A DNA stretch of 64,000 nucleotides from an uncultured Rhodobacterales bacterium (GCA_964632495.1 CAZWDS010000001.1:21318-85317), one strand, 5' to 3'. Shown: positions 344 to 40,234, counted from the first letter of the stretch. Notes: a model not told the origin generated them from the sequence alone. Numbers and translations: made by a program.

Positions 344-1062
344 AACTCCTACCTATATTCGTCGCGTTTGTCTTGACTCAGGGTTGCAGTCGTTTGGAAG
401 ACGTAGGTCGCCCCCCAGAATTTACACCAGCCAATCAATCGGCCGAAGTACGCGCCATGGGCTTTCCGGCCTATGCCGCGAATGACCCACGTCAGAATGC
501 TGAAGGTCCCTCGCTTTGGACTGGTGCGCGCGGCTCTCTTCTTGGTGATCGCCGCGCAGGTCAAGCCGGGGACATCATGACCGTTGTTATCGAAATCGAC
601 GAAAGCGCTCAAATCTCGAATGCTTCATCACGGTCACGCAACGGGTCCGAAACGTCGGGAGTCACCGAACTTCTTGGCTTGCCCCAAATTGTTGATCGCG
701 TTTTACCAGGCGATGCGTCATTGGCAAATGCGGGCGAATTCAATTCAACGTCATCCAGTGATGGACAAGGATCGGTCAGTCGCAGCGAGTCGTTGGAGCT
801 ACGTGTGGCCGCGACGGTTACCGATGTCCTACGAAACGGAGTGCTTCGCATTCAAGGGAGCCAAGAGGTTCGGGTCAACTTCGAAATACGAGAATTGTTG
901 GTGACGGGTTACGTACGGCCAGAAGATATATCGCGACGAAATGAAATCACTTACGACAAGATCGCTTCTGCACGAATTTCTTATGGCGGCCGTGGGCAAA
1001 TCACCGATGTTCAACAACCTCGATATGGCCAGCAAGTCGCTGACATCATCCTTCCATTCTGA
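340..1062 (+). CDS. flgH: FlgH, flagellar L-ring lipoprotein
   Basis: Lipoprotein signal with lipobox (FVLTQGC). Conserved FlgH core (SLWTG...GDIMTVVIEI...LRIQGSQEVRVNFE...LVTGYVRPEDI). Flagellar context. Confidence 0.9.
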   Translation: MKLLPIFVAFVLTQGCSRLEDVGRPPEFTPANQSAEVRAMGFPAYAANDPRQNAEGPSLWTGARGSLLGDRRAGQAGDIMTVVIEIDESAQISNASSRSRNGSETSGVTELLGLPQIVDRVLPGDASLANAGEFNSTSSSDGQGSVSRSESLELRVAATVTDVLRNGVLRIQGSQEVRVNFEIRELLVTGYVRPEDISRRNEITYDKIASARISYGGRGQITDVQQPRYGQQVADIILPF

Positions 1063-1071
1063 GTTTATTTC

Positions 1072-1548
1072 ATGGCTAAACTATTACCCATCATTCTTCT
1101 TCTTATTGGCGTCGGTGTGGGCGGTGGTGCCGGCATGTTCGTGAAACCGGACGAGCCTGTTTGTGAGGGCGAGGCTTGTGAGGAAACCACCGAACACATC
1201 GAAGAAGAAGGCGATCCGGCAGAAGAACCAAGCTATATTGCCATGAAGAACCAATTTGTGGTGCCGGTAATCGAAGATGAGTTGGTCAAGTCACTTGTGG
1301 TTCTATCGATCTCACTAGAGACGGGCCCCAACGATACGCAATACGTCTTTAGCCGAGAACCCAAGATCCGCGACACGTTTCTACAGGTCCTCTTCGATCA
1401 CGCACATGTCGGAGGCTTTGACGGGGCTTTCACAGAGAGTGGGCGCTTATCCCTTTTGCGGGTGGCACTGCTTGAGGCGGTGCATACTGTGGTTGGCGGA
1501 ACGGTCTCAGATATCTTGATCACCGATATCGTGCGTCAAGAGATGTGA
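1072..1548 (+). CDS. FliL-family basal-body-associated membrane protein (paralog 1)
   Basis: N-terminal TM helix (LLPIILLLIGVGVGGGAG) followed by a FliL-like periplasmic domain (FVVPVIEDELVKSLVVLSISLE...IRDTFLQVL). It follows flgH. Confidence 0.6.
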   Translation: MAKLLPIILLLIGVGVGGGAGMFVKPDEPVCEGEACEETTEHIEEEGDPAEEPSYIAMKNQFVVPVIEDELVKSLVVLSISLETGPNDTQYVFSREPKIRDTFLQVLFDHAHVGGFDGAFTESGRLSLLRVALLEAVHTVVGGTVSDILITDIVRQEM

Positions 1549-1932
1549 CAGTATATTCAAAGCTTCTAAGTCGCGCGCCTCTCTTTCATTCTTTTGCCGT
1601 TCATCCGCTTGATCTCTCAAAGATTCCACAACAACGTGTTCGGCTATAACGCGCCCGCAGACCTTGGCCGTCGCAGCATAATTTGCACGGCATTTTGCCA
1701 AGCGCATTTGCCGTTGTCGCAGTTCTTGATCGCGCCAAACCATCCATTTCTCCAGAACCAAGGCTTGATCAACTGAGCTGACTTTTGGATTGTTATTTCT
1801 CAGTTCCTCTACTCTTTGACTCGCCTCGTCTTGAAGGGCTGCCGCTTGATTCAATTTGAATGCCGCGTCCCTTTCGCGAACACGCGTCAATTCAATTAGT
1901 GGTGCCAGATCTTCTACATTTAAACGCCGCAC
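1507..1932 (-). CDS. 141-aa coiled-coil protein at the distal end of the flhB operon (possible FliJ-like export component)
   Basis: GTG start overlaps the flhB stop by 1 nt. Charged heptad-rich sequence of FliJ-like size. No recognisable catalytic motif. Confidence 0.45.
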   Translation of the reverse strand: MRRLNVEDLAPLIELTRVRERDAAFKLNQAAALQDEASQRVEELRNNNPKVSSVDQALVLEKWMVWRDQELRQRQMRLAKCRANYAATAKVCGRVIAEHVVVESLRDQADERQKNEREARDLEALNILSHLLTHDIGDQDI

Positions 1933-3023
1933 TAGAAATTTCCTTTTCTAGCTTTTTCGCGAATAGCATCCGCAAACCGAATTGCCGCAGCAATTGCTTG
2001 ATAATGATCAGTCGAAATTTCGCTGCCAATTTCAACAGAAGCATGCAATGCACGCGCCGTCGGCGGATCGCGATAGATAGGCACTCCGCTTTCGTTTGCT
2101 GTTTTCCGAATCCGCGCCGCAACCTCGTCGACGCCTTTCGCGACACAAACAGGTGCGGTACCACGTGACCTTACCCACTTTAGCGCAACCGCATAATGCT
2201 CAGGATTGACGACCACAACATCCGCGTCCGGAACATCTTGCAACATTTGGTTCGTGGCAATGTCATAGGCTTTCTGGCGACGCGCTTGCTTTGTATGCGG
2301 ATCCCCTTCGGTTTCCTTGTTCTCGTCCCTTAGTTCTTGCAATGACATTCGTTGCTTTCGAAAGAACTGAGCCCGTTGCCAAGCCAGATCGGTCGCCGCG
2401 AAAACAAGAATGGCGATCGCCGCCGCAACCAGAAAATCAAAGCAAAGTTCGGCTGTCAAAGTCAGGTTCGATGCAACAGGAAGAGACGGCATCGAAAGAA
2501 TCTCGTCCAGATGGGATTGAAAAACAACTCCCAGAACCACGCTATACACAATGAGCTTCAGAAAGCTCTTAAAGAAATTGAATATCCCGTCACGGCCATA
2601 TTTTTGTTTCGCATTACTGACGGGAGATATGCGGCTGAGTTTCGGTTTCAGTTTGGTAGACGCAAAGACCAACGCACCTTGTGCAAACGCAGTTAAAAGA
2701 GCGAAAGCCGTCGGCAGGGCAAACCAAAGAAAGACGCTTGCAAGAAGAGACCAGAATATTCTGCCATAACCGTGGCGTCCTCCCACCCCAAAAACCGCAT
2801 CGGTAAACACTTCAGGCGAGTCTAGAAAGATGATCAGTCCGGCGCCAATCTGATTTACTGAATGCAGGCCTAAGAAAATCGCAGTGGTCAGAACCCCCAA
2901 GTAGACAGAGAATGTTATGAGGTCTTGAGAGATCGGAACCTCACCGCGCTTTCGCGCCTCTTCTATTTTCCGTGGCGTCGCCTCAAAGGGCTTTTCTGAT
3001 CCCTCTTCTTCGTCCGCCATCAC
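1932..3023 (-). CDS. flhB: FlhB, flagellar type III export switch protein
   Basis: N-terminus EKPFEATPRKIEEARKRGEVP. Four TM segments. Autocleavage-site region VVVVNPEHYAVALKW (NP(T/E)H motif). Confidence 0.92.
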   Translation of the reverse strand: MMADEEEGSEKPFEATPRKIEEARKRGEVPISQDLITFSVYLGVLTTAIFLGLHSVNQIGAGLIIFLDSPEVFTDAVFGVGGRHGYGRIFWSLLASVFLWFALPTAFALLTAFAQGALVFASTKLKPKLSRISPVSNAKQKYGRDGIFNFFKSFLKLIVYSVVLGVVFQSHLDEILSMPSLPVASNLTLTAELCFDFLVAAAIAILVFAATDLAWQRAQFFRKQRMSLQELRDENKETEGDPHTKQARRQKAYDIATNQMLQDVPDADVVVVNPEHYAVALKWVRSRGTAPVCVAKGVDEVAARIRKTANESGVPIYRDPPTARALHASVEIGSEISTDHYQAIAAAIRFADAIREKARKGNF

Positions 3024-3796
3024 CGCACCCCGAACGGGGAATGAACACGAGCCGCGAAGTGATCAGCCCAAATCCAAAGTATCAATGGCGCTGTCAAAGC
3101 CAGCAAAAAAAGCGCTCCCAACGTGATCGCAGGTGCACCGACGAAGGCGACCATAAGTTGTGGCATCGCACGGTTGATGACGCCCAAAGCCAAATTATAA
3201 AGAAGTGAAACAGCGACAAAGGGTGCCGCCAAAGTAAAAGCAAACGAAAACGCAGCTGATACCGCATCAACAACCCATCTTGCCAAATCGTCGCTTCCAA
3301 TGGGATCGACCGGGTTAATCAGTTCATAGGACATGATGAACATCATCGAAATTTGAACGTGCAAACCAAGTTCCGCGGCAAGCGCCAAAGCCGCCAGTAG
3401 AAGAATGAAGCCAATCGCCGGTTGTGGATCAACAGACGCACCGCCCAACAGTTGCGAAAGGGATGTTGATTGTGCCGAGATCGTTGCGGCAACTTGAAGC
3501 CCCACCAAAATGAGCCTTAACGAAAGGCCAAGAGCTAGCCCTGTGATCACTTCGGTCAGGGCCAGGATTATAAACAGACGCTCTAAGTCAATAACCGCCT
3601 GAAGTTCGGGTAGAACAGCGGGCGCGACCACCAAGGTAAAGGCGATTGTCGCAGCAAGACGGACTCGCACAGGGACCATCATTTCACCAAAGGCCGGCAC
3701 AAGCGCGATAGCCGCACCAACACGCAGAAAGACCAAAAAAACTGGCTGCAGAAACTGAGGTGCGAGACCAAAGAGCTCGGCCAGTGCATCGGTCAT
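3020..3796 (-). CDS. fliR: FliR, flagellar export apparatus membrane protein
   Basis: 258-aa polytopic membrane protein between flhA and flhB, with 4-nt overlaps on both sides. FliR-like N-terminus (FLVFLRVGAAIALVPAFGE). Confidence 0.9.
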   Translation of the reverse strand: MTDALAELFGLAPQFLQPVFLVFLRVGAAIALVPAFGEMMVPVRVRLAATIAFTLVVAPAVLPELQAVIDLERLFIILALTEVITGLALGLSLRLILVGLQVAATISAQSTSLSQLLGGASVDPQPAIGFILLLAALALAAELGLHVQISMMFIMSYELINPVDPIGSDDLARWVVDAVSAAFSFAFTLAAPFVAVSLLYNLALGVINRAMPQLMVAFVGAPAITLGALFLLALTAPLILWIWADHFAARVHSPFGVR

Positions 3797-5856
3797 GTTG
3801 GAACAAGCCCAACAAGTGATGGGCGCGCCTCGCTTCCAAGTTCTTCAAACGACAGCACTGGATTGGTGATCCCTTTGGCCGCCAGCAAAGTTCGAAGAAA
3901 GCGCCGCCGCCTTACAGATGTGATGATCGCGGGAAAGTGCCCGGCTTCACTGGCGCGGTTGAGCTTCTCGGTCACACCGCTCGTCAGTTTCTGGAAGAGA
4001 TCAGGCGGTAATGCCACATCACCGCCGTTCGATTCATCCAGTTGATGCATCGCGAATGCCGCTTCCCATTCTGGCGATAGCTGGATCAATGGGATTGTGC
4101 CATCGCTTGATTTAACTTCGGCTACGATTTGAAAAGCCAATCGCTGACGAACATGTTCGCAGATCGAATCTGGGCTTGCCCCGACGCTACGCCCTTCTGA
4201 TACCGCTTCGACAATCATGGGCAGGTTTCGGATAGAAACACGCTCTTCCAGAAGCAAACGCAAGACTGACAAAAGTAATTCCGTCGGGACCTTGTCCGGG
4301 ATAAGTTCGTCAAACAAGCGTCTGTTAGCCTCGCTGCGCGCCACATCCGTTAGACTGCACAGTTCATCCAACAGTCGACGCATTGCCTTTAGGCTTAGAA
4401 TTCGTGGCAGGTTCGTCTTGATGACTTCCAACAGATGGGTGGCCAAGACCTCTGCAGGATTGACCACGGTCGCGCCCGCTAGCGCGGCGCTGTCGGCGTC
4501 GGCGTGCACCAACCATCGCGCTGGCGCACCGTAAACTGGTTCTTTGACATCACGACCAGCGGGAATGGCCATATCTTCGGGCGGCAAAAGCGCAAGAACT
4601 CTGGACGGGTCAAGATTGTCGCGAGCCTGTTCTACGCCTTGCACACGGATCACGTATTCTCCCGGTACAAGACCAGCGTCGTCTGTTAATCGAATCTCCG
4701 GCAAAATCACTCCAAACATTGTCGCCACATGTTGGCGCATGTTTACAATGCGGGCATCAAGGCCTGTCACGGGATCTAGAATCATAGGGACCAGATCTTG
4801 AGAGAATTCGACGTGAATTTCATCCAGATCCAGAACATCCCCCATGGTCTTTTCATGGGGGGTCCCATCGTCTTCAACCTCATCAATAGATTGATCGGTC
4901 TCTGGCTTGACTGAGATTCGCCACGCGATGGTCCCAAGAATTACAGCGCCCCCAAGAAACGGAAGAAACGGCAACCCGGGGAAAAGAGCAAAGACCGCCA
5001 TCAACGCTGCCACCGTCGCCAAGGCGGGAGGATATTTCCCAAGTTGCGCAAGTACAGCCAAATCCGCGGAACCACGCGCACCACCCCGTGACAACAATAG
5101 TGCGGTAGCAATCGAAATAATGACTGCTGGAATTTGGCTGACCAAACCGTCGCCAACTGTCAGAATTGCATAGGTTTCGAACGCACGTCCGATCTCCATG
5201 TCATGAACCGCAACGCCGATGATCAACCCCATGACGATATTGAGAAGCGTGATCAGAAGACCGGCAATAGCGTCCCCCTTCACGAATTTCGACGCACCAT
5301 CAAGTGAGCCAAGAAAGGTCGTTTCTGCCTGTTCAATTTCGCGCCGTCTTTTTGCCTCGGTGTGATCGATCGCACCAGCCGACATGTCGCTGTCAATTGC
5401 CAGTTGCTTTCCCGGCATTCCGTCCAAAGCAAAACGGGCCCCCACTTCGGCCATTCGTGCAGCGCCCTTTGTGATGACCATAAAGTTCACAATCATCAGA
5501 ACTCCGAACACCACAAGCCCTAGGAATAGACTTCCGCCCATAATAAAATTTGCAAAACCTTCAATGACTTCACCGGCAGCGCCCGTGCCCGTGTGCCCCT
5601 GACCGATGATTAGCTTGGTTGACGAAATGTTTAAGGAAAGTCGCAGCATTAGCGAAGCGAGCAGGACGGTCGGGAAAGACGAAAAATCCAGCGGGCGTTC
5701 TACAAATATTGTGATCGAAAATATGAGGATCGCGAACGAGAACGAAGCGGCCAATCCAATGTCCAATACCCAGGACGGCATTGGCAAAACCATCATGACG
5801 ATAATAGCCATCAGCGCTAGCGTCATCAGTATCGTAGGGCTGAAAATATGCTTCAT
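3793..5856 (-). CDS. flhA: FlhA, flagellar export gate protein
   Basis: 687 aa. Conserved FHIPEP region (FPTVLL..SLMLRLSLNISSTKLII, GGSLFLGLVVF, RFALDGMPGKQLAIDSD) and a cytoplasmic C-domain. Confidence 0.95.
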   Translation of the reverse strand: MKHIFSPTILMTLALMAIIVMMVLPMPSWVLDIGLAASFSFAILIFSITIFVERPLDFSSFPTVLLASLMLRLSLNISSTKLIIGQGHTGTGAAGEVIEGFANFIMGGSLFLGLVVFGVLMIVNFMVITKGAARMAEVGARFALDGMPGKQLAIDSDMSAGAIDHTEAKRRREIEQAETTFLGSLDGASKFVKGDAIAGLLITLLNIVMGLIIGVAVHDMEIGRAFETYAILTVGDGLVSQIPAVIISIATALLLSRGGARGSADLAVLAQLGKYPPALATVAALMAVFALFPGLPFLPFLGGAVILGTIAWRISVKPETDQSIDEVEDDGTPHEKTMGDVLDLDEIHVEFSQDLVPMILDPVTGLDARIVNMRQHVATMFGVILPEIRLTDDAGLVPGEYVIRVQGVEQARDNLDPSRVLALLPPEDMAIPAGRDVKEPVYGAPARWLVHADADSAALAGATVVNPAEVLATHLLEVIKTNLPRILSLKAMRRLLDELCSLTDVARSEANRRLFDELIPDKVPTELLLSVLRLLLEERVSIRNLPMIVEAVSEGRSVGASPDSICEHVRQRLAFQIVAEVKSSDGTIPLIQLSPEWEAAFAMHQLDESNGGDVALPPDLFQKLTSGVTEKLNRASEAGHFPAIITSVRRRRFLRTLLAAKGITNPVLSFEELGSEARPSLVGLVPT

Positions 5857-6633
5857 CTAGCGCGCCTCTACCAAAGGTTTCGGCGAGGCAAAATTGATGA
5901 GGCGCCCGGTGGTATGATCATTCAGCTGGACAAGCGAGCCGCGCCTAGCCGGTGACCCTTGCTGCAACAGAGGGTAACGATTGACGCGCGCAATGATGTC
6001 CAACGGCGCTGTAGGCTGTGGAACGTCTGCAATAACCAGCTCGACTGGTACCACCTCGCTCAGCCGGGATCGAATGCGCTCAAATCGGGCAGCATACTTG
6101 TTAGCGAACTTTGGCGTGCGAGAATGATAGGCGCCCGCTGCTTTCGTCCAATCCCCAAACTCATTGTAAAGGTCACCTAAGAATGATGCAGCGTACCGCG
6201 CATTTGCCATTGGATCGAACATCTCTTCGACTGATTGAAATGCATGGCCATGCCAACGATAATTGATCTGAAAACAGCCTACATCGAAACTACGAGCGCC
6301 TCTTGCAAAGTGTCTATCTACATATGCCTGTGCTTCGCCGCGCGTATCGAACCATTTTCCGGCCCCTTCCATATTGACCGTCCAGGGCCAGGGCAAGAAA
6401 CCCTCAGAGTTTTTTCGCCCAGTTTCTGTCAAAGAAATCGCGCGTAAAACTTCTAGCGGAACGCCACTTTCTTGTGAAATGGCCAGTGCCGCACGTTCGC
6501 AAATCGATGCCCCCGAACGCCGATCAACTTTGGCAATTGAACTACACGGAAAGGCAATCATAAAAACTAATGTCGCAACGGCAGCTATGCGTCGCATTTG
6601 ATTGGAATTAGACATATTCAGCATTCTGCTCAT
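5857..6633 (-). CDS. Flagellum-associated lytic transglycosylase (SLT domain)
   Basis: Signal-like N-terminus, then an SLT catalytic region (GVPLEVLRAISLTETGR...PWPWTVN...GCFQINYRWH). It lies immediately upstream of flhA on the same strand. Confidence 0.8.
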   Translation of the reverse strand: MSRMLNMSNSNQMRRIAAVATLVFMIAFPCSSIAKVDRRSGASICERAALAISQESGVPLEVLRAISLTETGRKNSEGFLPWPWTVNMEGAGKWFDTRGEAQAYVDRHFARGARSFDVGCFQINYRWHGHAFQSVEEMFDPMANARYAASFLGDLYNEFGDWTKAAGAYHSRTPKFANKYAARFERIRSRLSEVVPVELVIADVPQPTAPLDIIARVNRYPLLQQGSPARRGSLVQLNDHTTGRLINFASPKPLVEAR

Positions 6634-35532: not shown

Positions 35533-37386
35533 TTACTTTTGAAGGATATCTCGCATCAAAAGAGGCTCTGACAACAACTCGCCCAAGGTGAAATCAGGGT
35601 TCGTTTCGACAAAGTCGTCTGCCATCTTCAGAGGCATCAGAACCCGATAGCCTTCTGCCAAACCCGTGCTGACCAGATTTGCGTCCGGGCCATCACTTGC
35701 CCAATGGGGGACAGCGACCATCTGGTTCGGCGCCTGCAAAACGCTGCGAAAAGCGTGTAGATACACAATCGTCGGCCCGTCGTATCCTTGCGAAGTGTCC
35801 GCTAAGACATCCATCCGACGCAACTGTGAAATCCACACATCGCTTGCTGAAATAAAGATCGCAAGGCCAAGACCAACACCGGTCGTTCCCAAAGCCAACA
35901 TTCCAACTGGGCCAGTTGAAAAATGTTTTACCCCAGCGATCAGGGCCGTCAGCGCCACGGCAAACAGCACAAAGGTCGACAGGATCTGGTGAACACCCGA
36001 GATACCAGACGGCGTGAGCACAGTTTGCAGGATCCCTGCCACGATCCCGACGACAGCAGCGCCTCCTAGAACAAGACCGGGCCGACTTAGGTTTTCTGTC
36101 AAACGCCAAACTAGAACAACGCACAGCGCCGAGAGCAGTGGCAGGGTTGGCATCAGGTAACGCATATTCAAGCCAAGACCACCGTGCCAAGCGCGAATCA
36201 CAAAGGGAAATGACCAAATGACGACAAATACCAAAATGGTCTGGATGGCTCGACGATGCTTGCCCCATGAGGCGAAGATCAAAAACGACAGTAGGCCCAA
36301 CCACGGCATGCTTTGACCAAGCGCTTTCTTGGGCAGCCCCCAAAACCGCAGCGTCCCATCGGCAGCACGCTCTACACCTGCGCGCGGGTCGATGATGGTC
36401 CTTGCGTCAACGAACAGGGCGATGAAACCCGTGTAGAGGCGATGAAGAACGCGTTGGGCTTCCGGCAGAACAATGGCTGTACCAGCCAATACGATGACAA
36501 CGATGCCAGTTACTAGACGCGGGTTGATCCGAGCCTGCGAAACACGCAGTCCAATCAAACAAGTCAAAACCAATCCGGCTCCAAGTCCAACCACGAGATA
36601 GCCATTTAGCGCGACGGCCCCACCATCCTGACCATAAGAAATCGGATTTGGTGAGCCGAATTTGATCTGATTTGCGATTGCCATGATCACGAAAGCGGGT
36701 GCCAATCCCATGGCACCGCCCAAAATAATTGATACAGGTCGGACCGCCAAAGGAACGGTCAAAAGCACGATCACCGGCAAAAGCAAAACGCTATCAAGAC
36801 GAAAAAGAAGTCCAGCGCCTAGGATCAAACCCGAAATCAATGCGTATCTGAACGCTTTCTCGCCAGCTTCCAAAGCTTTGAGGAACCACAGGAAAGCTGC
36901 GCTAGTGGAAAGAACAGAAACAGCGTGCGGCCACAGGCCAAACGCATACTCGCCTATGAAAGTTCCGAAAAAGAACAGCAAAGCTGCGGCCAAGCCAATG
37001 GATTCATCCTTGAAAAGCTGGATGGTCAAGGCTCGCGTCACAAAGACCGTTGCGGCAATGCAGACCGCGTGAAAGACGAGTATGCCACGTACATCCAATA
37101 CCCCGATCAAACCCGCGCCGACAACTGCACTTCCCACAGGATACTGCGGCACCAGCCCTTCGGTTCCATAAACCAAAAGATCAATCCATCTAAGATCTCG
37201 AGATCGAAACTCCTCAAACCCATTTTCGATAAACAGGCTTTGGGAAGACAAAAGCGTATCAGCGGCCGTCACATAGATCACTTCGTCTATGATGTAGAAC
37301 CCTGTAGACGCAAAGCAGGCGCCAAGGATCAACAAGCCAGCCAAGGCTTTCAGAACCCAAGCGCCTGTTCGGTGAACATCGGTCAT
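35533..37386 (-). CDS. GT-C-fold (ArnT/PMT-like) integral-membrane glycosyltransferase
   Basis: 617 aa with more than 10 predicted TM helices. Asp-Glu motif at the end of TM1 (FYIIDEVIYV), as in GT-C enzymes. Soluble C-terminal ~90 aa. 4-nt overlap with the upstream GT2 gene. Confidence 0.7.
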   Translation of the reverse strand: MTDVHRTGAWVLKALAGLLILGACFASTGFYIIDEVIYVTAADTLLSSQSLFIENGFEEFRSRDLRWIDLLVYGTEGLVPQYPVGSAVVGAGLIGVLDVRGILVFHAVCIAATVFVTRALTIQLFKDESIGLAAALLFFFGTFIGEYAFGLWPHAVSVLSTSAAFLWFLKALEAGEKAFRYALISGLILGAGLLFRLDSVLLLPVIVLLTVPLAVRPVSIILGGAMGLAPAFVIMAIANQIKFGSPNPISYGQDGGAVALNGYLVVGLGAGLVLTCLIGLRVSQARINPRLVTGIVVIVLAGTAIVLPEAQRVLHRLYTGFIALFVDARTIIDPRAGVERAADGTLRFWGLPKKALGQSMPWLGLLSFLIFASWGKHRRAIQTILVFVVIWSFPFVIRAWHGGLGLNMRYLMPTLPLLSALCVVLVWRLTENLSRPGLVLGGAAVVGIVAGILQTVLTPSGISGVHQILSTFVLFAVALTALIAGVKHFSTGPVGMLALGTTGVGLGLAIFISASDVWISQLRRMDVLADTSQGYDGPTIVYLHAFRSVLQAPNQMVAVPHWASDGPDANLVSTGLAEGYRVLMPLKMADDFVETNPDFTLGELLSEPLLMRDILQK

Positions 37387-38339
37387 TTAGTGTCGGATGC
37401 CCTGTCCAACTCCATTTTGAGAAGTCGGCTGCGAATATCTGCCGAAAGAACCCGGTTTGCTGCGATGAGATCCGCAATTAACCCGCCCACAAAGGTGACT
37501 GTGCCTGCCGCAACAAAGGCCGAACCGATGACCAGCGACTGAATGTTGCCGCCGCCCTGACCCATCATATAGAGGACCAGGAAACGGGCAAAAGCTACGA
37601 CGCCGGGGATCATCAGGATCAAGGCAAGCAAGGCCAGAAAGCGGAACGGGCTATAAAGAACCGCCACCCGAAGTATCGTTTTTGAGGACCGCCAAACATA
37701 GCTGCCCATAGATTTGATAAGCCGGGATTCACGTGTCGGATCATTGACGTTAATTGGAACCGAGGTGATCGGGATTCCAAGGCGACCAGCCTGAATAATT
37801 GTTTCCAAGGTATAGGTATATCGATCAAACACATACAACTGGATCGCAGCGTCCCGATGAATAGCCCGAAAACCACTTGGTGCATCGCCAATTTCAGTCC
37901 CACTTGCCACGCGAACAACCCAACTGCCCAACCGTTGCAATGCCTGTTTGATTGGAGAAAAATGTTGAATGGCCGTGATCGGGCGTTCACCGACAACGAT
38001 CTGAGCGTCGCCAGCCAGAATGGGCGCTGTCAGATCGGGAATGCCGCTTGCATCGTATTGGTTGTCGCCGTCCGTATTGATGATGACATCGGCACCTGCA
38101 CGTAGTGCCGCCTCAATTCCAGCCATGAACGCAGAGGCAAGGCCTTGGTTGTGAGAGAGATCCACTATGTGATCAACACCGTGCTCCTTGGCGACTTCAA
38201 TCGTACGGTCTGTCGAGCCGTCATTGATGATTTGCCATTCAACAGCATCAAACCCCGGCACTTCGCGGGGAAGGTCGGCAAGGGTACCAGGAAGTGTTTC
38301 TTCCTCGTTGTGGCAAGGGATTTGAATTATGAGTTTCAT
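37383..38339 (-). CDS. GT2 polyprenyl-phosphate glycosyltransferase (DPM1/ArnC/GtrB-like) with two C-terminal TM helices
   Basis: IQIPCHNEEETL...INDGSTDRT...NTDGDNQYD (DxD) GT-A motifs. C-terminal TM pair (FLALLALILMIPGVVAF; VIGSAFVAAGTVTFVGGLIADLI). Confidence 0.85.
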   Translation of the reverse strand: MKLIIQIPCHNEEETLPGTLADLPREVPGFDAVEWQIINDGSTDRTIEVAKEHGVDHIVDLSHNQGLASAFMAGIEAALRAGADVIINTDGDNQYDASGIPDLTAPILAGDAQIVVGERPITAIQHFSPIKQALQRLGSWVVRVASGTEIGDAPSGFRAIHRDAAIQLYVFDRYTYTLETIIQAGRLGIPITSVPINVNDPTRESRLIKSMGSYVWRSSKTILRVAVLYSPFRFLALLALILMIPGVVAFARFLVLYMMGQGGGNIQSLVIGSAFVAAGTVTFVGGLIADLIAANRVLSADIRSRLLKMELDRASDTK

Positions 38340-38429
38340 GGCCCGGATCTTCGCTTCATTATCGAACTACTTGTCGATTGTGACGACAATTTGGCTTTCT
38401 ACGGGGAATTGATGCCAATTCCAGGACAA

Positions 38430-39359
38430 TCAGTGGTGATGTGTGACCATGTCCCAACGGGCCAGCCAAGCTTCTAAAAGCGGTTGAATGACCCGACATA
38501 CATATCCGAAGCGTGACGAAGGGCGCCGTGGACGCCGATGCTGAAACTGAAGCGTGCCCCAGAACCTGCCTTCTAACGTCAACGGCACGGTCAACTGCGC
38601 CCGCATTTCTTGCTTTGAAAGGTGCTCTAGGATTGCAGGTACCGGCTGTGGGAAGGTCAGCAAGGGCAACTCAAACCGGCCAGCGCTATCAAATCTTAAC
38701 ATGACGGCATTTTCTTCAATGTCGTGAATAACACAATGCGGCGGCAGAGCATCTTCGTGCGGAGTTATGGCGAAGTCCATTTCCATACCAAGTGTCTCGG
38801 AGACGCGGCCACGGCGCGATTCAGCGATGACAACTCCGGTGTGCTTATCTTGGTGCCGCAAGACTTGGACACGGTCATATCCTGACAGAATGCGCATTAA
38901 ACTCAGAATCCGCGAGAAAAGTATGTCGAGGCTTTCCGCGCCTTTCATCCGATCTGACACACGGCTAATGTCCCTTATAAGATCAAGCGCAGATACAGGT
39001 GCATCTGGCTCTTTCAGTTCTAGAACGGTACATTTTCCAGCGTCAAAAACCGAAATGTCCATTTCAACACCAGCAACCGTTACTGGCCCAAGAATCTCTG
39101 GTTTCTCATGAATGTTCGGCAGCGTTTGCGCGTTACGGATACTGTGCAAAAGTTCGGCGCCAACGACTTGCTCGACAGATTTTCCGAAGGTTTCATCGAC
39201 CTGCAAGGCCGGGACAAATTCGTTCAGATTTTCACTGACAAGGGCGACTTTCTCAGTCGACCTCTTAAACCCTATCAAAGCTCCAATCGGTTGAATCCCT
39301 CCAACGTCATAACTTGCCGATACTAGATCTGACATTTGGATTTCCGTGCGAGACTGCAA
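38430..39359 (-). CDS. Phytochrome-like PAS(2)-GAF chromophore-binding-module homolog with no PHY or output domain
   Basis: GGIQPIGALIGF (compare IQPHGAL), LSGYDRVQVLRHQDKHTGVVIAESRR (compare FDRVM.Y.F..D..GEVIAE), FWGTLQFQHRRP (compare LWGLIACHH). 309 aa, ending where PHY normally begins. Confidence 0.75.
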   Translation of the reverse strand: MQSRTEIQMSDLVSASYDVGGIQPIGALIGFKRSTEKVALVSENLNEFVPALQVDETFGKSVEQVVGAELLHSIRNAQTLPNIHEKPEILGPVTVAGVEMDISVFDAGKCTVLELKEPDAPVSALDLIRDISRVSDRMKGAESLDILFSRILSLMRILSGYDRVQVLRHQDKHTGVVIAESRRGRVSETLGMEMDFAITPHEDALPPHCVIHDIEENAVMLRFDSAGRFELPLLTFPQPVPAILEHLSKQEMRAQLTVPLTLEGRFWGTLQFQHRRPRRPSSRFGYVCRVIQPLLEAWLARWDMVTHHH

Positions 39360-39556
39360 TGACCCCAGCGACCATGCTGAATGTACCTTATCTGAAGCTT
39401 TTGGCTTTGCAATTTTTGCGTGCCGTCAAAAATAAAAAGCAACCAAGGCGAGAAGAGCGCGTAAGCTGATATTTTTTGTTTGCATCATTTGCCATTGGAC
39501 TTTTGCGCTTGGCCCTTTCAGCCTGCGACAAAGCAAACAGCCCAAGGGAGCCTGCC

Positions 39557-40234
39557 ATGACTTTTGCGCCCCAGCTGCAAGATGGCGACGTTAAAACAGT
39601 TATGGCGGCAATGTCTGCGCGACCAGCGACAGACACTGTCGCCAAGTTTGTGCCGGGTCCCGGCCTTGTGAAACTGGACATGCAATTTGACATCGAAAAA
39701 TTACGCGATGCTTTGGACGAATGTTTGAAACGGGAAAAGATGATGGGTGGTATGCAAGACGAAGGTTTTGCAGCATTGCCGCTGACACAAAAACCTGGAC
39801 AGACAGAATGGACCGAGAATGATCTATCAGGCCGGTACTGGCTGCGGGCCGATGATAGATACGTCGAAGAACCGCGCGAGGATCTAGTGCCCGAAGTCGC
39901 CTTTTCCGAGTTCAATCCCAAGTTCAAAGGCACATACTTTGAAGCGGTCCATACAGAACTATCAAAGCGGTTCCCCATCGGACGCACCCGCGTCTTGTCA
40001 AAGGGTCTCTATAACTGCAACTCGTGGCACCGCGATCCCGAACCTCGTCTGCACATCCCGGTCATCACAAACCCCGGATCCTTGTTTGTCGTGAACCACC
40101 ATGTCACGCATCTGCCTGCAGATGGCTCGGTCTATTTCACCGACACGCGCGCCTACCACACCGCGCTGAACGGTGGCGAAACACGTCGGGTCCATATCGT
40201 GGCGGCGCTGGCGTATGAACAGGTGACAGAATGA
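39557..40234 (+). CDS. Aspartyl/asparaginyl beta-hydroxylase-family cupin (putative 2OG/Fe(II) oxygenase)
   Basis: NSWHRDPEPRLHIPVITNPGSLFVV...GSVYFTDTRAYHTALNGGETRRVHIV matches the HxD...H facial triad spacing of that family. ATG at 39557 has an AGGGAG SD. The track ORF starts at TTG 39476. Confidence 0.65.
   Translation: MTFAPQLQDGDVKTVMAAMSARPATDTVAKFVPGPGLVKLDMQFDIEKLRDALDECLKREKMMGGMQDEGFAALPLTQKPGQTEWTENDLSGRYWLRADDRYVEEPREDLVPEVAFSEFNPKFKGTYFEAVHTELSKRFPIGRTRVLSKGLYNCNSWHRDPEPRLHIPVITNPGSLFVVNHHVTHLPADGSVYFTDTRAYHTALNGGETRRVHIVAALAYEQVTE

Follow-up and report, generated by a model that had tools for sequence, protein, structure and literature searches.

In a 64,000-nucleotide stretch of DNA from an uncultured Rhodobacterales bacterium (GCA_964632495.1, CAZWDS010000001.1:21318-85317), referred to here in its full length as the window, three co-directional genes lying between positions 35,533 and 39,359 encode a phytochrome-like PAS_2-GAF protein, a family 2 glycosyltransferase (GT2) and a multi-spanning membrane protein with the fold of the GT-C glycosyltransferases. 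A preliminary description of this DNA had read the three genes as a candidate module, in which a light or ligand sensor might govern the glycosylation of the cell envelope. Our analysis leads to another account, which we regard as likely: the locus is made up of three units of separate evolutionary origin, which stand side by side in a single narrow clade only, and the GT2/GT-C cassette is independent of the PAS-GAF gene and was inserted once. What had looked like a glycosylation module under the control of a sensor probably came about by chance, through the insertion of genes, and the partner of the PAS-GAF protein would be the TupBCA-like operon lying downstream, not the glycosyltransferases. 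The argument is carried by domains, folds, synteny, the loss of a bilin pocket and the conservation of sequence motifs.

Occurrence of the glycosyltransferase pair and of the PAS-GAF gene

We surveyed GT-C loci using one genome per species, which yielded 65 loci with a homologue of the GT-C gene. The position of the GT2 gene in these loci was as follows: (i) immediately upstream of the GT-C gene and on the same strand in 35/65 loci, (ii) immediately downstream in 2/65 and divergent in another 2/65, (iii) within 6 kb in 7/65, (iv) absent from the vicinity in 14/65, and (v) not assignable in 5/65, where the upstream side of the GT-C gene is cut off. The claim that the two genes form a coupled pair is well borne out by these figures, with the GT2 gene immediately upstream in 35 loci and next to the GT-C gene or close by in another 11. 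The 4-nt overlap between them, confirmed in the window as ATGA, recurs in the loci L020 and L021 and in the Silicimonas locus L022. The GT2 and GT-C genes form a real, widely conserved and translationally coupled two-gene unit, within which conservation across loci is much higher for the GT2 protein (60-96% identity) than for the GT-C protein (30-74%). As the GT-C family was found in only 24 of the 400 genera sampled from this bacterial family (~6%), the cassette is to be seen as accessory. No GT-C homologue was detected in the plasmid collection, and homologous pairs are also present in Erythrobacter, Novosphingobium, Altererythrobacter, Qipengyuania and Tsuneonella. Cultivable bacteria that carry the pair include Boseongicola aestuarii CECT 8489, Silicimonas algicola DSM 103371, Jannaschia aquimarina GSW-M26 and Cognatishimia maritima DSM 28223.

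The link claimed between the PAS-GAF gene and this pair did not hold up. A PAS-GAF gene was found within 6 kb of the GT-C gene in 0/65 loci (tblastn and a profile hidden Markov model of the short family, with 6/6 positive controls recovered), and at least 5 PAS-GAF loci are without GT genes. The latter comprise G003, a genome of the same genus, G017, from another genus, and the loci L119, L127 and L128, in all of which a PAS-GAF gene, whose product is 31-36% identical to that of the window, stands 52-128 bp upstream of a TupB-like permease gene. Apart from the window, the full trio is seen only in L020 and L021, both close relatives of metagenomic origin (GT-C proteins 74% and 63% identical, respectively), and beyond these the PAS-GAF gene is not syntenic with the glycosyltransferase (GT) pair in relatives.

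The features of the locus are listed below (aa, amino acids; TM, transmembrane).

38433-39335, minus strand: PAS_2-GAF gene, 301 aa from its ATG; the open reading frame including the TTG start spans 38430-39359
38340-38429, minus strand: 90-bp spacer between the PAS-GAF and GT2 genes, with two inverted repeats and the upstream box of the GT cassette
38378-38391, minus strand: upstream box AATTGTCGTCACAA, 51 nt 5' of the GT2 ATG
37383-38339, minus strand: GT2 glycosyltransferase gene, 318 aa; GT-A domain and two C-terminal TM helices
35533-37386, minus strand: gene of the predicted GT-C fold glycosyltransferase, 617 aa; ~13 TM helices and a small C-terminal alpha/beta domain
35457-35489, minus strand: direct repeat of the tup leader, GGAAATTCTGCAAG-N5-GGAAATTTTGCAAG, overlapping the TTG start of the tupB-like permease gene
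32382-35463, minus strand: TupB/C/A-like oxyanion uptake operon of the ATP-binding cassette type with a terminal HTH-PBP regulator, assigned from Pfam/NCBIfam matches and synteny

All three minus-strand genes described previously were recovered as open reading frames (38430-39359, 37383-38339 and 35533-37386), as was the 90-bp spacer separating the first two. Homologues and the 301-aa entry of the collection place the start of the PAS-GAF gene at the ATG at 39335 and not at the TTG at 39359; its product matches Pfam PAS_2 at 7.6e-10 and GAF at 1e-5. A 199-aa minus-strand open reading frame at 39388-39987, Ser/Arg-rich and without a family match, was considered as an upstream member of the operon and rejected as the shadow of a 225-aa plus-strand gene (39557-40234), itself ATGA-coupled to a threonine-aldolase-like gene. 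Since that frame is a shadow, the PAS-GAF gene is the first one after a divergent intergenic region of 197 bp. Scanning positions 35300-39700 against Rfam at E <= 1 gave no match. The genes are real, far beyond chance; the hairpins of the spacer are present, and as structures they are not beyond chance.

With regard to the GT pair, two tandem GT-C paralogues were observed behind a single GT2 gene at G186:C4:4199-8082 and at L041, an arrangement which suggests that one lipid-linked donor may serve two transferases.

The PAS-GAF/tup junction and the spacer

The tup-like operon was the next non-GT gene set downstream of the PAS-GAF gene, on the same strand, in 9 of the 10 informative loci carrying the short PAS-GAF form, while the upstream flanks differed from locus to locus. 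This conserved position suggests a link between the PAS-GAF gene and the operon, whose assignment draws on matches to TupA (2.8e-63) and TupB (1.8e-49) that both lie below the equivalog cut-offs. Loci showing the association include L016, L017, L119, L127 and L128, and we have not found it described. A single distant homologue, P0074 (30% identity), lies in a different context.

Ahead of the operon, a leader of ~50 nt is conserved in 7 loci, whether a GT-C, a GT2 or a PAS-GAF gene stands upstream, and carries the direct repeat GGAAATTYTGCAAG twice (35457-35489 in the window). As the leader is conserved regardless of the upstream gene, the tup operon appears to have kept its own leader, the cassette having landed upstream of it. 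Judged by this pattern of conservation, the repeat marks the presumed downstream edge of the cassette insertion, and it is a likely operator candidate for the HTH-PBP regulator encoded at the end of the operon.

In a maximum-likelihood tree of the PAS-GAF proteins, all GT-bearing loci fall into one clade (support 96/91), and L127, L119, G017 and L128 lie outside it. Because the GT-bearing loci form one PAS-GAF clade, the cassette can be taken to have entered an older PAS-GAF/tup junction. The simplest history starts from such an ancestral junction, followed by a single insertion of the cassette, which would have entered the PAS-GAF/tup spacer in the ancestor of the sub-clade, and by a later loss of the GT-C gene from the corresponding locus of G001, a genome of the same genus. 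The gene order at that locus is PAS-GAF (38% identity), GT2 (86%) and permease, and the only GT-C homologue of G001 (43%) is found 1.06 Mb away, beside aspS and without a GT2 gene. The locus in question is L015 (G001:C3:369000-386000), and the separate GT-C gene was noted together with L018/L027.

How far the association with the tup-like operon reflects function has to be weighed separately. A functional tie may exist between the PAS-GAF protein and the TupBCA-like transporter with its HTH-PBP regulator, the protein acting, for instance, by ligand binding or as a partner; this would account for the position of its gene, and the cassette would interrupt a unit. We hold this as a tentative proposal, with somewhat less than even confidence. 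It is favoured by the persistence of the operon downstream in 9/10 informative loci, at PAS-GAF identities down to 31-36% and with varying upstream flanks. On the other hand, all the genomes belong to one bacterial family, so that inherited synteny may suffice, a conserved leader belonging to the tup operon itself directly precedes the permease gene, and the distant homologue P0074 occurs in another context. Moreover, as the protein has no DNA-binding or catalytic domain, this proposal comes with no evident mechanism.

A second and differently oriented juxtaposition of a GT cassette with a tup-type transporter was seen in an unrelated Rhodobacteraceae metagenome-assembled genome (L062, ~970-6260), where the GT2/GT-C pair stands divergently beside another tup-like operon (permease 54%, ATPase 48% and binding protein 45% identical), without a PAS-GAF gene.

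The spacer between the PAS-GAF and GT2 genes contains the two inverted repeats that had been put forward as hairpins, TTGTCG-N7-CGACAA at 38371-38389 and GGAATTG-N4-CAATTCC at 38405-38422. While the repeats themselves are present, the role in attenuation or processing of the transcript that had been ascribed to them found no support, neither in the predicted fold of the spacer RNA (-20.6 kcal/mol vs -21.65 +/- 3.54 for shuffled sequences; z = +0.30) nor in relatives, where the arms are not conserved: the right arm of the former is gone in L021 and G001, and the left arm of the latter in L020, L021 and G001, in every case uncompensated.

What is conserved in the spacer is a DNA box, AATTGTCGTCACAA at 38378-38391, also written ATTGTCGTCACA, with a family consensus of about ATTGTTGCCACAT, which overlaps the left arm of the TTGTCG hairpin. 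In 10/47 loci of unrelated context, the box is the best leave-one-out position weight matrix hit of the whole 10-14 kb locus and lies 51-62 nt 5' of the GT2 gene on the same strand, vs ~0.2 loci expected by chance for this placement. The TTGTCG "hairpin" is, in terms of conservation, one half of a putative cis-element that travels with the cassette, and the box as a whole is probably a promoter or operator element of the GT2/GT-C cassette, which would then probably be transcribed from a promoter of its own. A promoter-like TCGTCA-17-GATAAT was noted at 38386-38358. Identification of the box as a sigma-70, RpoH, Pho or LexA-type site was considered and rejected, the spacing to candidate -10 elements being inconsistent between loci.

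The two enzymes and their acceptor

The GT2 protein matches Glycos_transf_2 (PF00535) at 8.4e-19, and its nearest solved proteins are ArnC (4e-8) and the Pyrococcus DPMS, a Dol-P-Man synthase (2e-7). Residues D90-G-D92 align to the D-A-D of ArnC as a motif of the DXD type, the alignment with ArnC continues into the membrane helices, and hydropathy analysis reveals two C-terminal hydrophobic segments (~225-260 and 266-295), all in agreement with the ArnC/GtrB/DPM1 architecture assigned to this protein beforehand. Its best NCBIfam matches (AglJ, Dol-P-hexose transferase, PpgS, ArnC and PgfS) all lie far under the equivalog cut-offs, and no equivalog model that would name the sugar was matched, the best being AglJ with 77.6 bits vs a cut-off of 325. 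From these similarities, the GT2 protein is most likely a polyprenyl-phosphate sugar synthase.

The 617-aa protein was found to have 54 homologues, several of which are named at the source as GT39, PMT_2, "RgtA/B/C/D-like domain" or "Ara4N transferase-like". Searching it with hmmscan against Pfam returned no family, although its gene reached 28.3 bits with PMT_2 (PF13231) vs a cut-off of 26.1 in a six-frame search of the genome; among the 47 homologues that were aligned, PMT_2 matches 18/47 and YfhO 16/47. The model NF047440 scored 62 bits vs a cut-off of 200, and comparison of the protein profile with the PDB by sequence gave nothing meaningful, so that fold comparison alone was informative. 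The AlphaFold (AF2) model built from the 47-homologue alignment is confident (pLDDT 90.7, pTM 0.91) and contains ~13 TM helices, and the top 23 Foldseek matches in the PDB are all GT-C enzymes, with ArnT (5f15) as the best (E 1e-7; TM-score 0.47-0.55), followed by AglB, STT3, PglB, ALG12, EmbC and Pmt4. Both the GT-C fold and the Asp-Glu motif that had been proposed for this protein are upheld, the motif being D34-E35 right after the first TM helix, in the first extracytoplasmic loop, and invariant in the alignment. As for membership in ArnT/GT83, no ArnT model was matched, the structural alignment with ArnT has 12-13% identity, and no arn genes are nearby. By its modelled fold and acidic motif, the protein is assigned to the GT-C superfamily (ArnT/PMT/STT3-like, GT-C_A), and it would take sugar from a donor linked to polyprenyl phosphate and pass it on to an acceptor outside the cytoplasm. 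The same genome also carries a second PMT_2-type GT-C gene (G000:C149:2795-3247; open frame of 519 aa).

Taken together, the predicted pathway would begin at the cytoplasmic face of the membrane, where the GT2 enzyme would charge polyprenyl (undecaprenyl) phosphate with a sugar taken from a nucleotide sugar; a flippase would turn the lipid-linked sugar to the periplasmic side, and the GT-C enzyme would there move the sugar to its acceptor by means of the invariant D34-E35 loop. At other loci the recurrent neighbours of the pair are further GT2 genes (11), GT4 genes (9 + 7), Wzx-like Polysacc_synt genes (8) and methyltransferase genes (6); clustering of the neighbours of the 65 loci revealed no recurrent third gene and no flippase beside the pair. 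Sphingomonadales, in which homologous pairs also occur, make glycosphingolipids instead of lipopolysaccharide (LPS). Because of the polysaccharide-gene neighbours elsewhere and the pairs in these LPS-lacking bacteria, a polysaccharide is favoured over lipid A, and the acceptor is most likely a surface polysaccharide, which would receive side-chain sugars of the O-antigen, exopolysaccharide or capsule type, much like the acceptors of Gtr or GacI/GacL systems.

It is unlikely, in our judgement, that the pair modifies lipid A or the LPS core instead of a polysaccharide, as ArnC/ArnT, LgmA/LgmB and RgtE/RgtA-D do. Such a role would agree with ArnT as the best structural match of the GT-C protein, with ArnC as the best solved relative of the GT2 protein, and with the Rgt- and Ara4N-type names that some homologues bear at the source. 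However, the likeness to ArnT is one of fold only and other GT-C enzymes score nearly equally, none of the equivalog models for ArnT, Rgt and ArnC is matched at its cut-off, the neighbours in other genomes are polysaccharide-assembly genes, and Sphingomonadales with homologous pairs have no LPS to be modified.

The PAS-GAF protein, remaining alternatives and known systems

The PAS-GAF protein matches the chromophore-binding domain (CBD) of the bacteriophytochrome (BphP) Agp2 by sequence at 1e-19, and its AF2 model (pLDDT 92.2) gives Foldseek TM-scores of 0.75-0.83 to BphP CBDs. The residues that line the bilin pocket of Agp2 are nevertheless missing: the segment of ~14 residues bearing Cys13 is absent, R211 is deleted, and Y165, F192, D196 (of the DIP motif), Y205, R242, H248 and H278 are replaced by L, M, I, P, P, I and Q, respectively. 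Residue 301, behind the GAF domain, is the last one, and neither a PHY domain nor an output module follows. It belongs to a family of short proteins (~285-307 aa; at least 12 clusters at E < 1e-30), found in 2 of 400 genera sampled, throughout which the pocket losses, including that of the Cys segment, are shared; the nearest full-length relatives, BphPs of ~850 aa with an HWE kinase and receiver domains, retain the pocket features. Conserved motifs outside the pocket, WG and HRRPRxPxxR, are found in the short family. The PAS-GAF protein is a stand-alone, fast-evolving derivative of a bacteriophytochrome CBD with a degenerate bilin pocket. The phytochrome-like protein of the preliminary description is retained as far as the PAS_2-GAF fold is concerned, but light sensing by it is unlikely, as it has neither the segment with the bilin-binding Cys nor the Asp of the DIP motif, has lost the Arg, His and Tyr residues that are key to the pocket, and is without PHY domain and output.

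Elsewhere the genome carries a full-length BphP-like gene (G000:C35:7015-7818; open frame of 858 aa), and heme oxygenase (PF01126) is absent from it. The idea that the short protein acts as a heterodimer partner of a full-length BphP was set aside as not general, since G001 and G003 have the short form only.

Compared with L020, the rate of nonsynonymous change (dN) is 0.336 for PAS-GAF, 0.158 for GT-C, 0.072 for the permease and 0.031 for GT2, with values of dN/dS being rough because synonymous change (dS) is saturated. The PAS-GAF gene is constrained, the proportion of nonsynonymous differences to L020 (pN 0.27) being far below that of synonymous ones (pS 0.67).

Several observations weigh against the account that we prefer. 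No terminator-like site was predicted on the minus strand of the 90-bp spacer, so that transcription from the PAS-GAF gene may read through into the GT2 gene. In the window, L020 and L021, which are the closest loci, all three genes have stayed together, as have PAS-GAF and GT2 in G001, which leaves room for a lineage-specific functional recruitment. In the PAS-GAF tree, G003 is a long-branched member of the GT-bearing clade, and its lack of GT genes may represent a loss and not the state before the insertion. The 12-mer core of the upstream box has 6 copies in the genome vs 0 for the reversed control, and since the other copies look intragenic, we claim no regulon for it. With respect to the predicted pathway, no polysaccharide genes flank the GT pair in the window, and the GtrA-like flippase that the preliminary description had suggested looking for elsewhere was not found, the GtrA family (PF04138) being absent from this 92%-complete genome and detected in 8/14 controls.

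Two readings would nonetheless place the PAS-GAF protein and the GT pair in one circuit. According to the first, the bilin-blind PAS-GAF protein of a narrow Paracoccaceae clade senses not light but a small molecule, and with it an oxyanion or cofactor state, was ancestrally coupled to the tungstate-type transporter and, after the insertion of the cassette, came also to influence the GT pair by read-through. We consider this very unlikely; if true, it would tie metal or oxyanion status to the decoration of surface glycans. The second is the one proposed at the outset, in which the PAS-GAF protein, as a sensor of light or of a ligand, has the GT2/GT-C pair under its control, so that the surface is remodelled in response to a signal, and in which the spacer hairpins attenuate or process a transcript shared by the genes. 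Co-directional genes, the 90-bp gap, the lack of a predicted terminator and the retention of the trio in three loci, and of PAS-GAF with GT2 in G001, speak for it, but PAS-GAF is found at 0/65 GT-C loci, at least 5 genomes have it with no GT genes beside it, the bilin pocket is lost and no PHY or output domain is left, the hairpins are neither exceptional (z = +0.30) nor conserved, and the cassette has its own conserved upstream box; this reading is highly improbable and already largely refuted by synteny. The suggestion that the PAS-GAF frame is the decaying, functionless remnant of a bacteriophytochrome gene deserves very little credence, for although the gene evolves 2-10 times faster than its neighbours (dN 0.336 vs 0.031-0.158) and retains none of the chromophore residues and no C-terminal domains, the frame is open at ~285-307 aa in at least 12 clusters of the short family, pN is far below pS, the fold is predicted with confidence and the WG and HRRPRxPxxR motifs are still conserved.

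On the account of an independent cassette, the GT2/GT-C pair is an uncharacterised, patchily distributed accessory glycosylation cassette of this family and of Sphingomonadales. Its hosts are marine alphaproteobacteria, for which surface glycans shape interactions with phages, grazers and algal hosts. As the mechanism class is a textbook one, the pair extends a known kind and opens no new one. For annotation the correction is of importance: it was from adjacency that a module under sensor control had been suggested, and comparative genomics does not bear it out. As a by-product, a family of phytochrome chromophore domains without a bilin pocket, conserved beside a tungstate-type uptake operon, has emerged, which may merit a study of its own.

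Among known systems, the ArnC/ArnT pair resembles the present one in its GT2 enzyme with a GT-A domain and C-terminal TM helices, ArnC being the nearest solved relative, in ArnT being the best structural match of the GT-C partner, and in the predicted synthesis of the donor in the cytoplasm for use in the periplasm. It differs in that the similarity is at the level of fold only (12-13% identity, TM-score ~0.5), with no ArnT or ArnC equivalog reached, in that arnA, arnB, arnD, arnE and arnF are not among the neighbours here, and in that the contexts in other genomes point to polysaccharide and not to lipid A. In the Gtr-type framework and its variants, a GtrB-type GT2 works with a GT-C enzyme in post-polymerisation glycosylation outside the cytoplasm (PMC11127046). 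This pairing, seen in GtrA/GtrB/GtrC, GacI/GacL and CsbB/YfhO, is shared by the present cassette, and a further likeness lies in the YfhO model matching 16/47 homologues and in the polysaccharide neighbours elsewhere. In contrast to the Gtr systems, no GtrA-family flippase is adjacent or in the genome, no third gene accompanies the pair across the 65 loci, and the pair lies on the chromosome instead of being carried by a phage, plasmid matches being absent as well. With the CBDs of the bacteriophytochromes Agp2, DrBphP and RpBphP2, finally, the PAS-GAF protein shares the PAS_2-GAF architecture and fold (TM-score 0.75-0.83), whereas it is without the N-terminal Cys segment and without equivalents of Arg242, His248, His278, Tyr165 and Tyr205, has the DIP region deleted or replaced, bears neither PHY domain nor output, and, unlike them, has a conserved position upstream of a tup-like operon.

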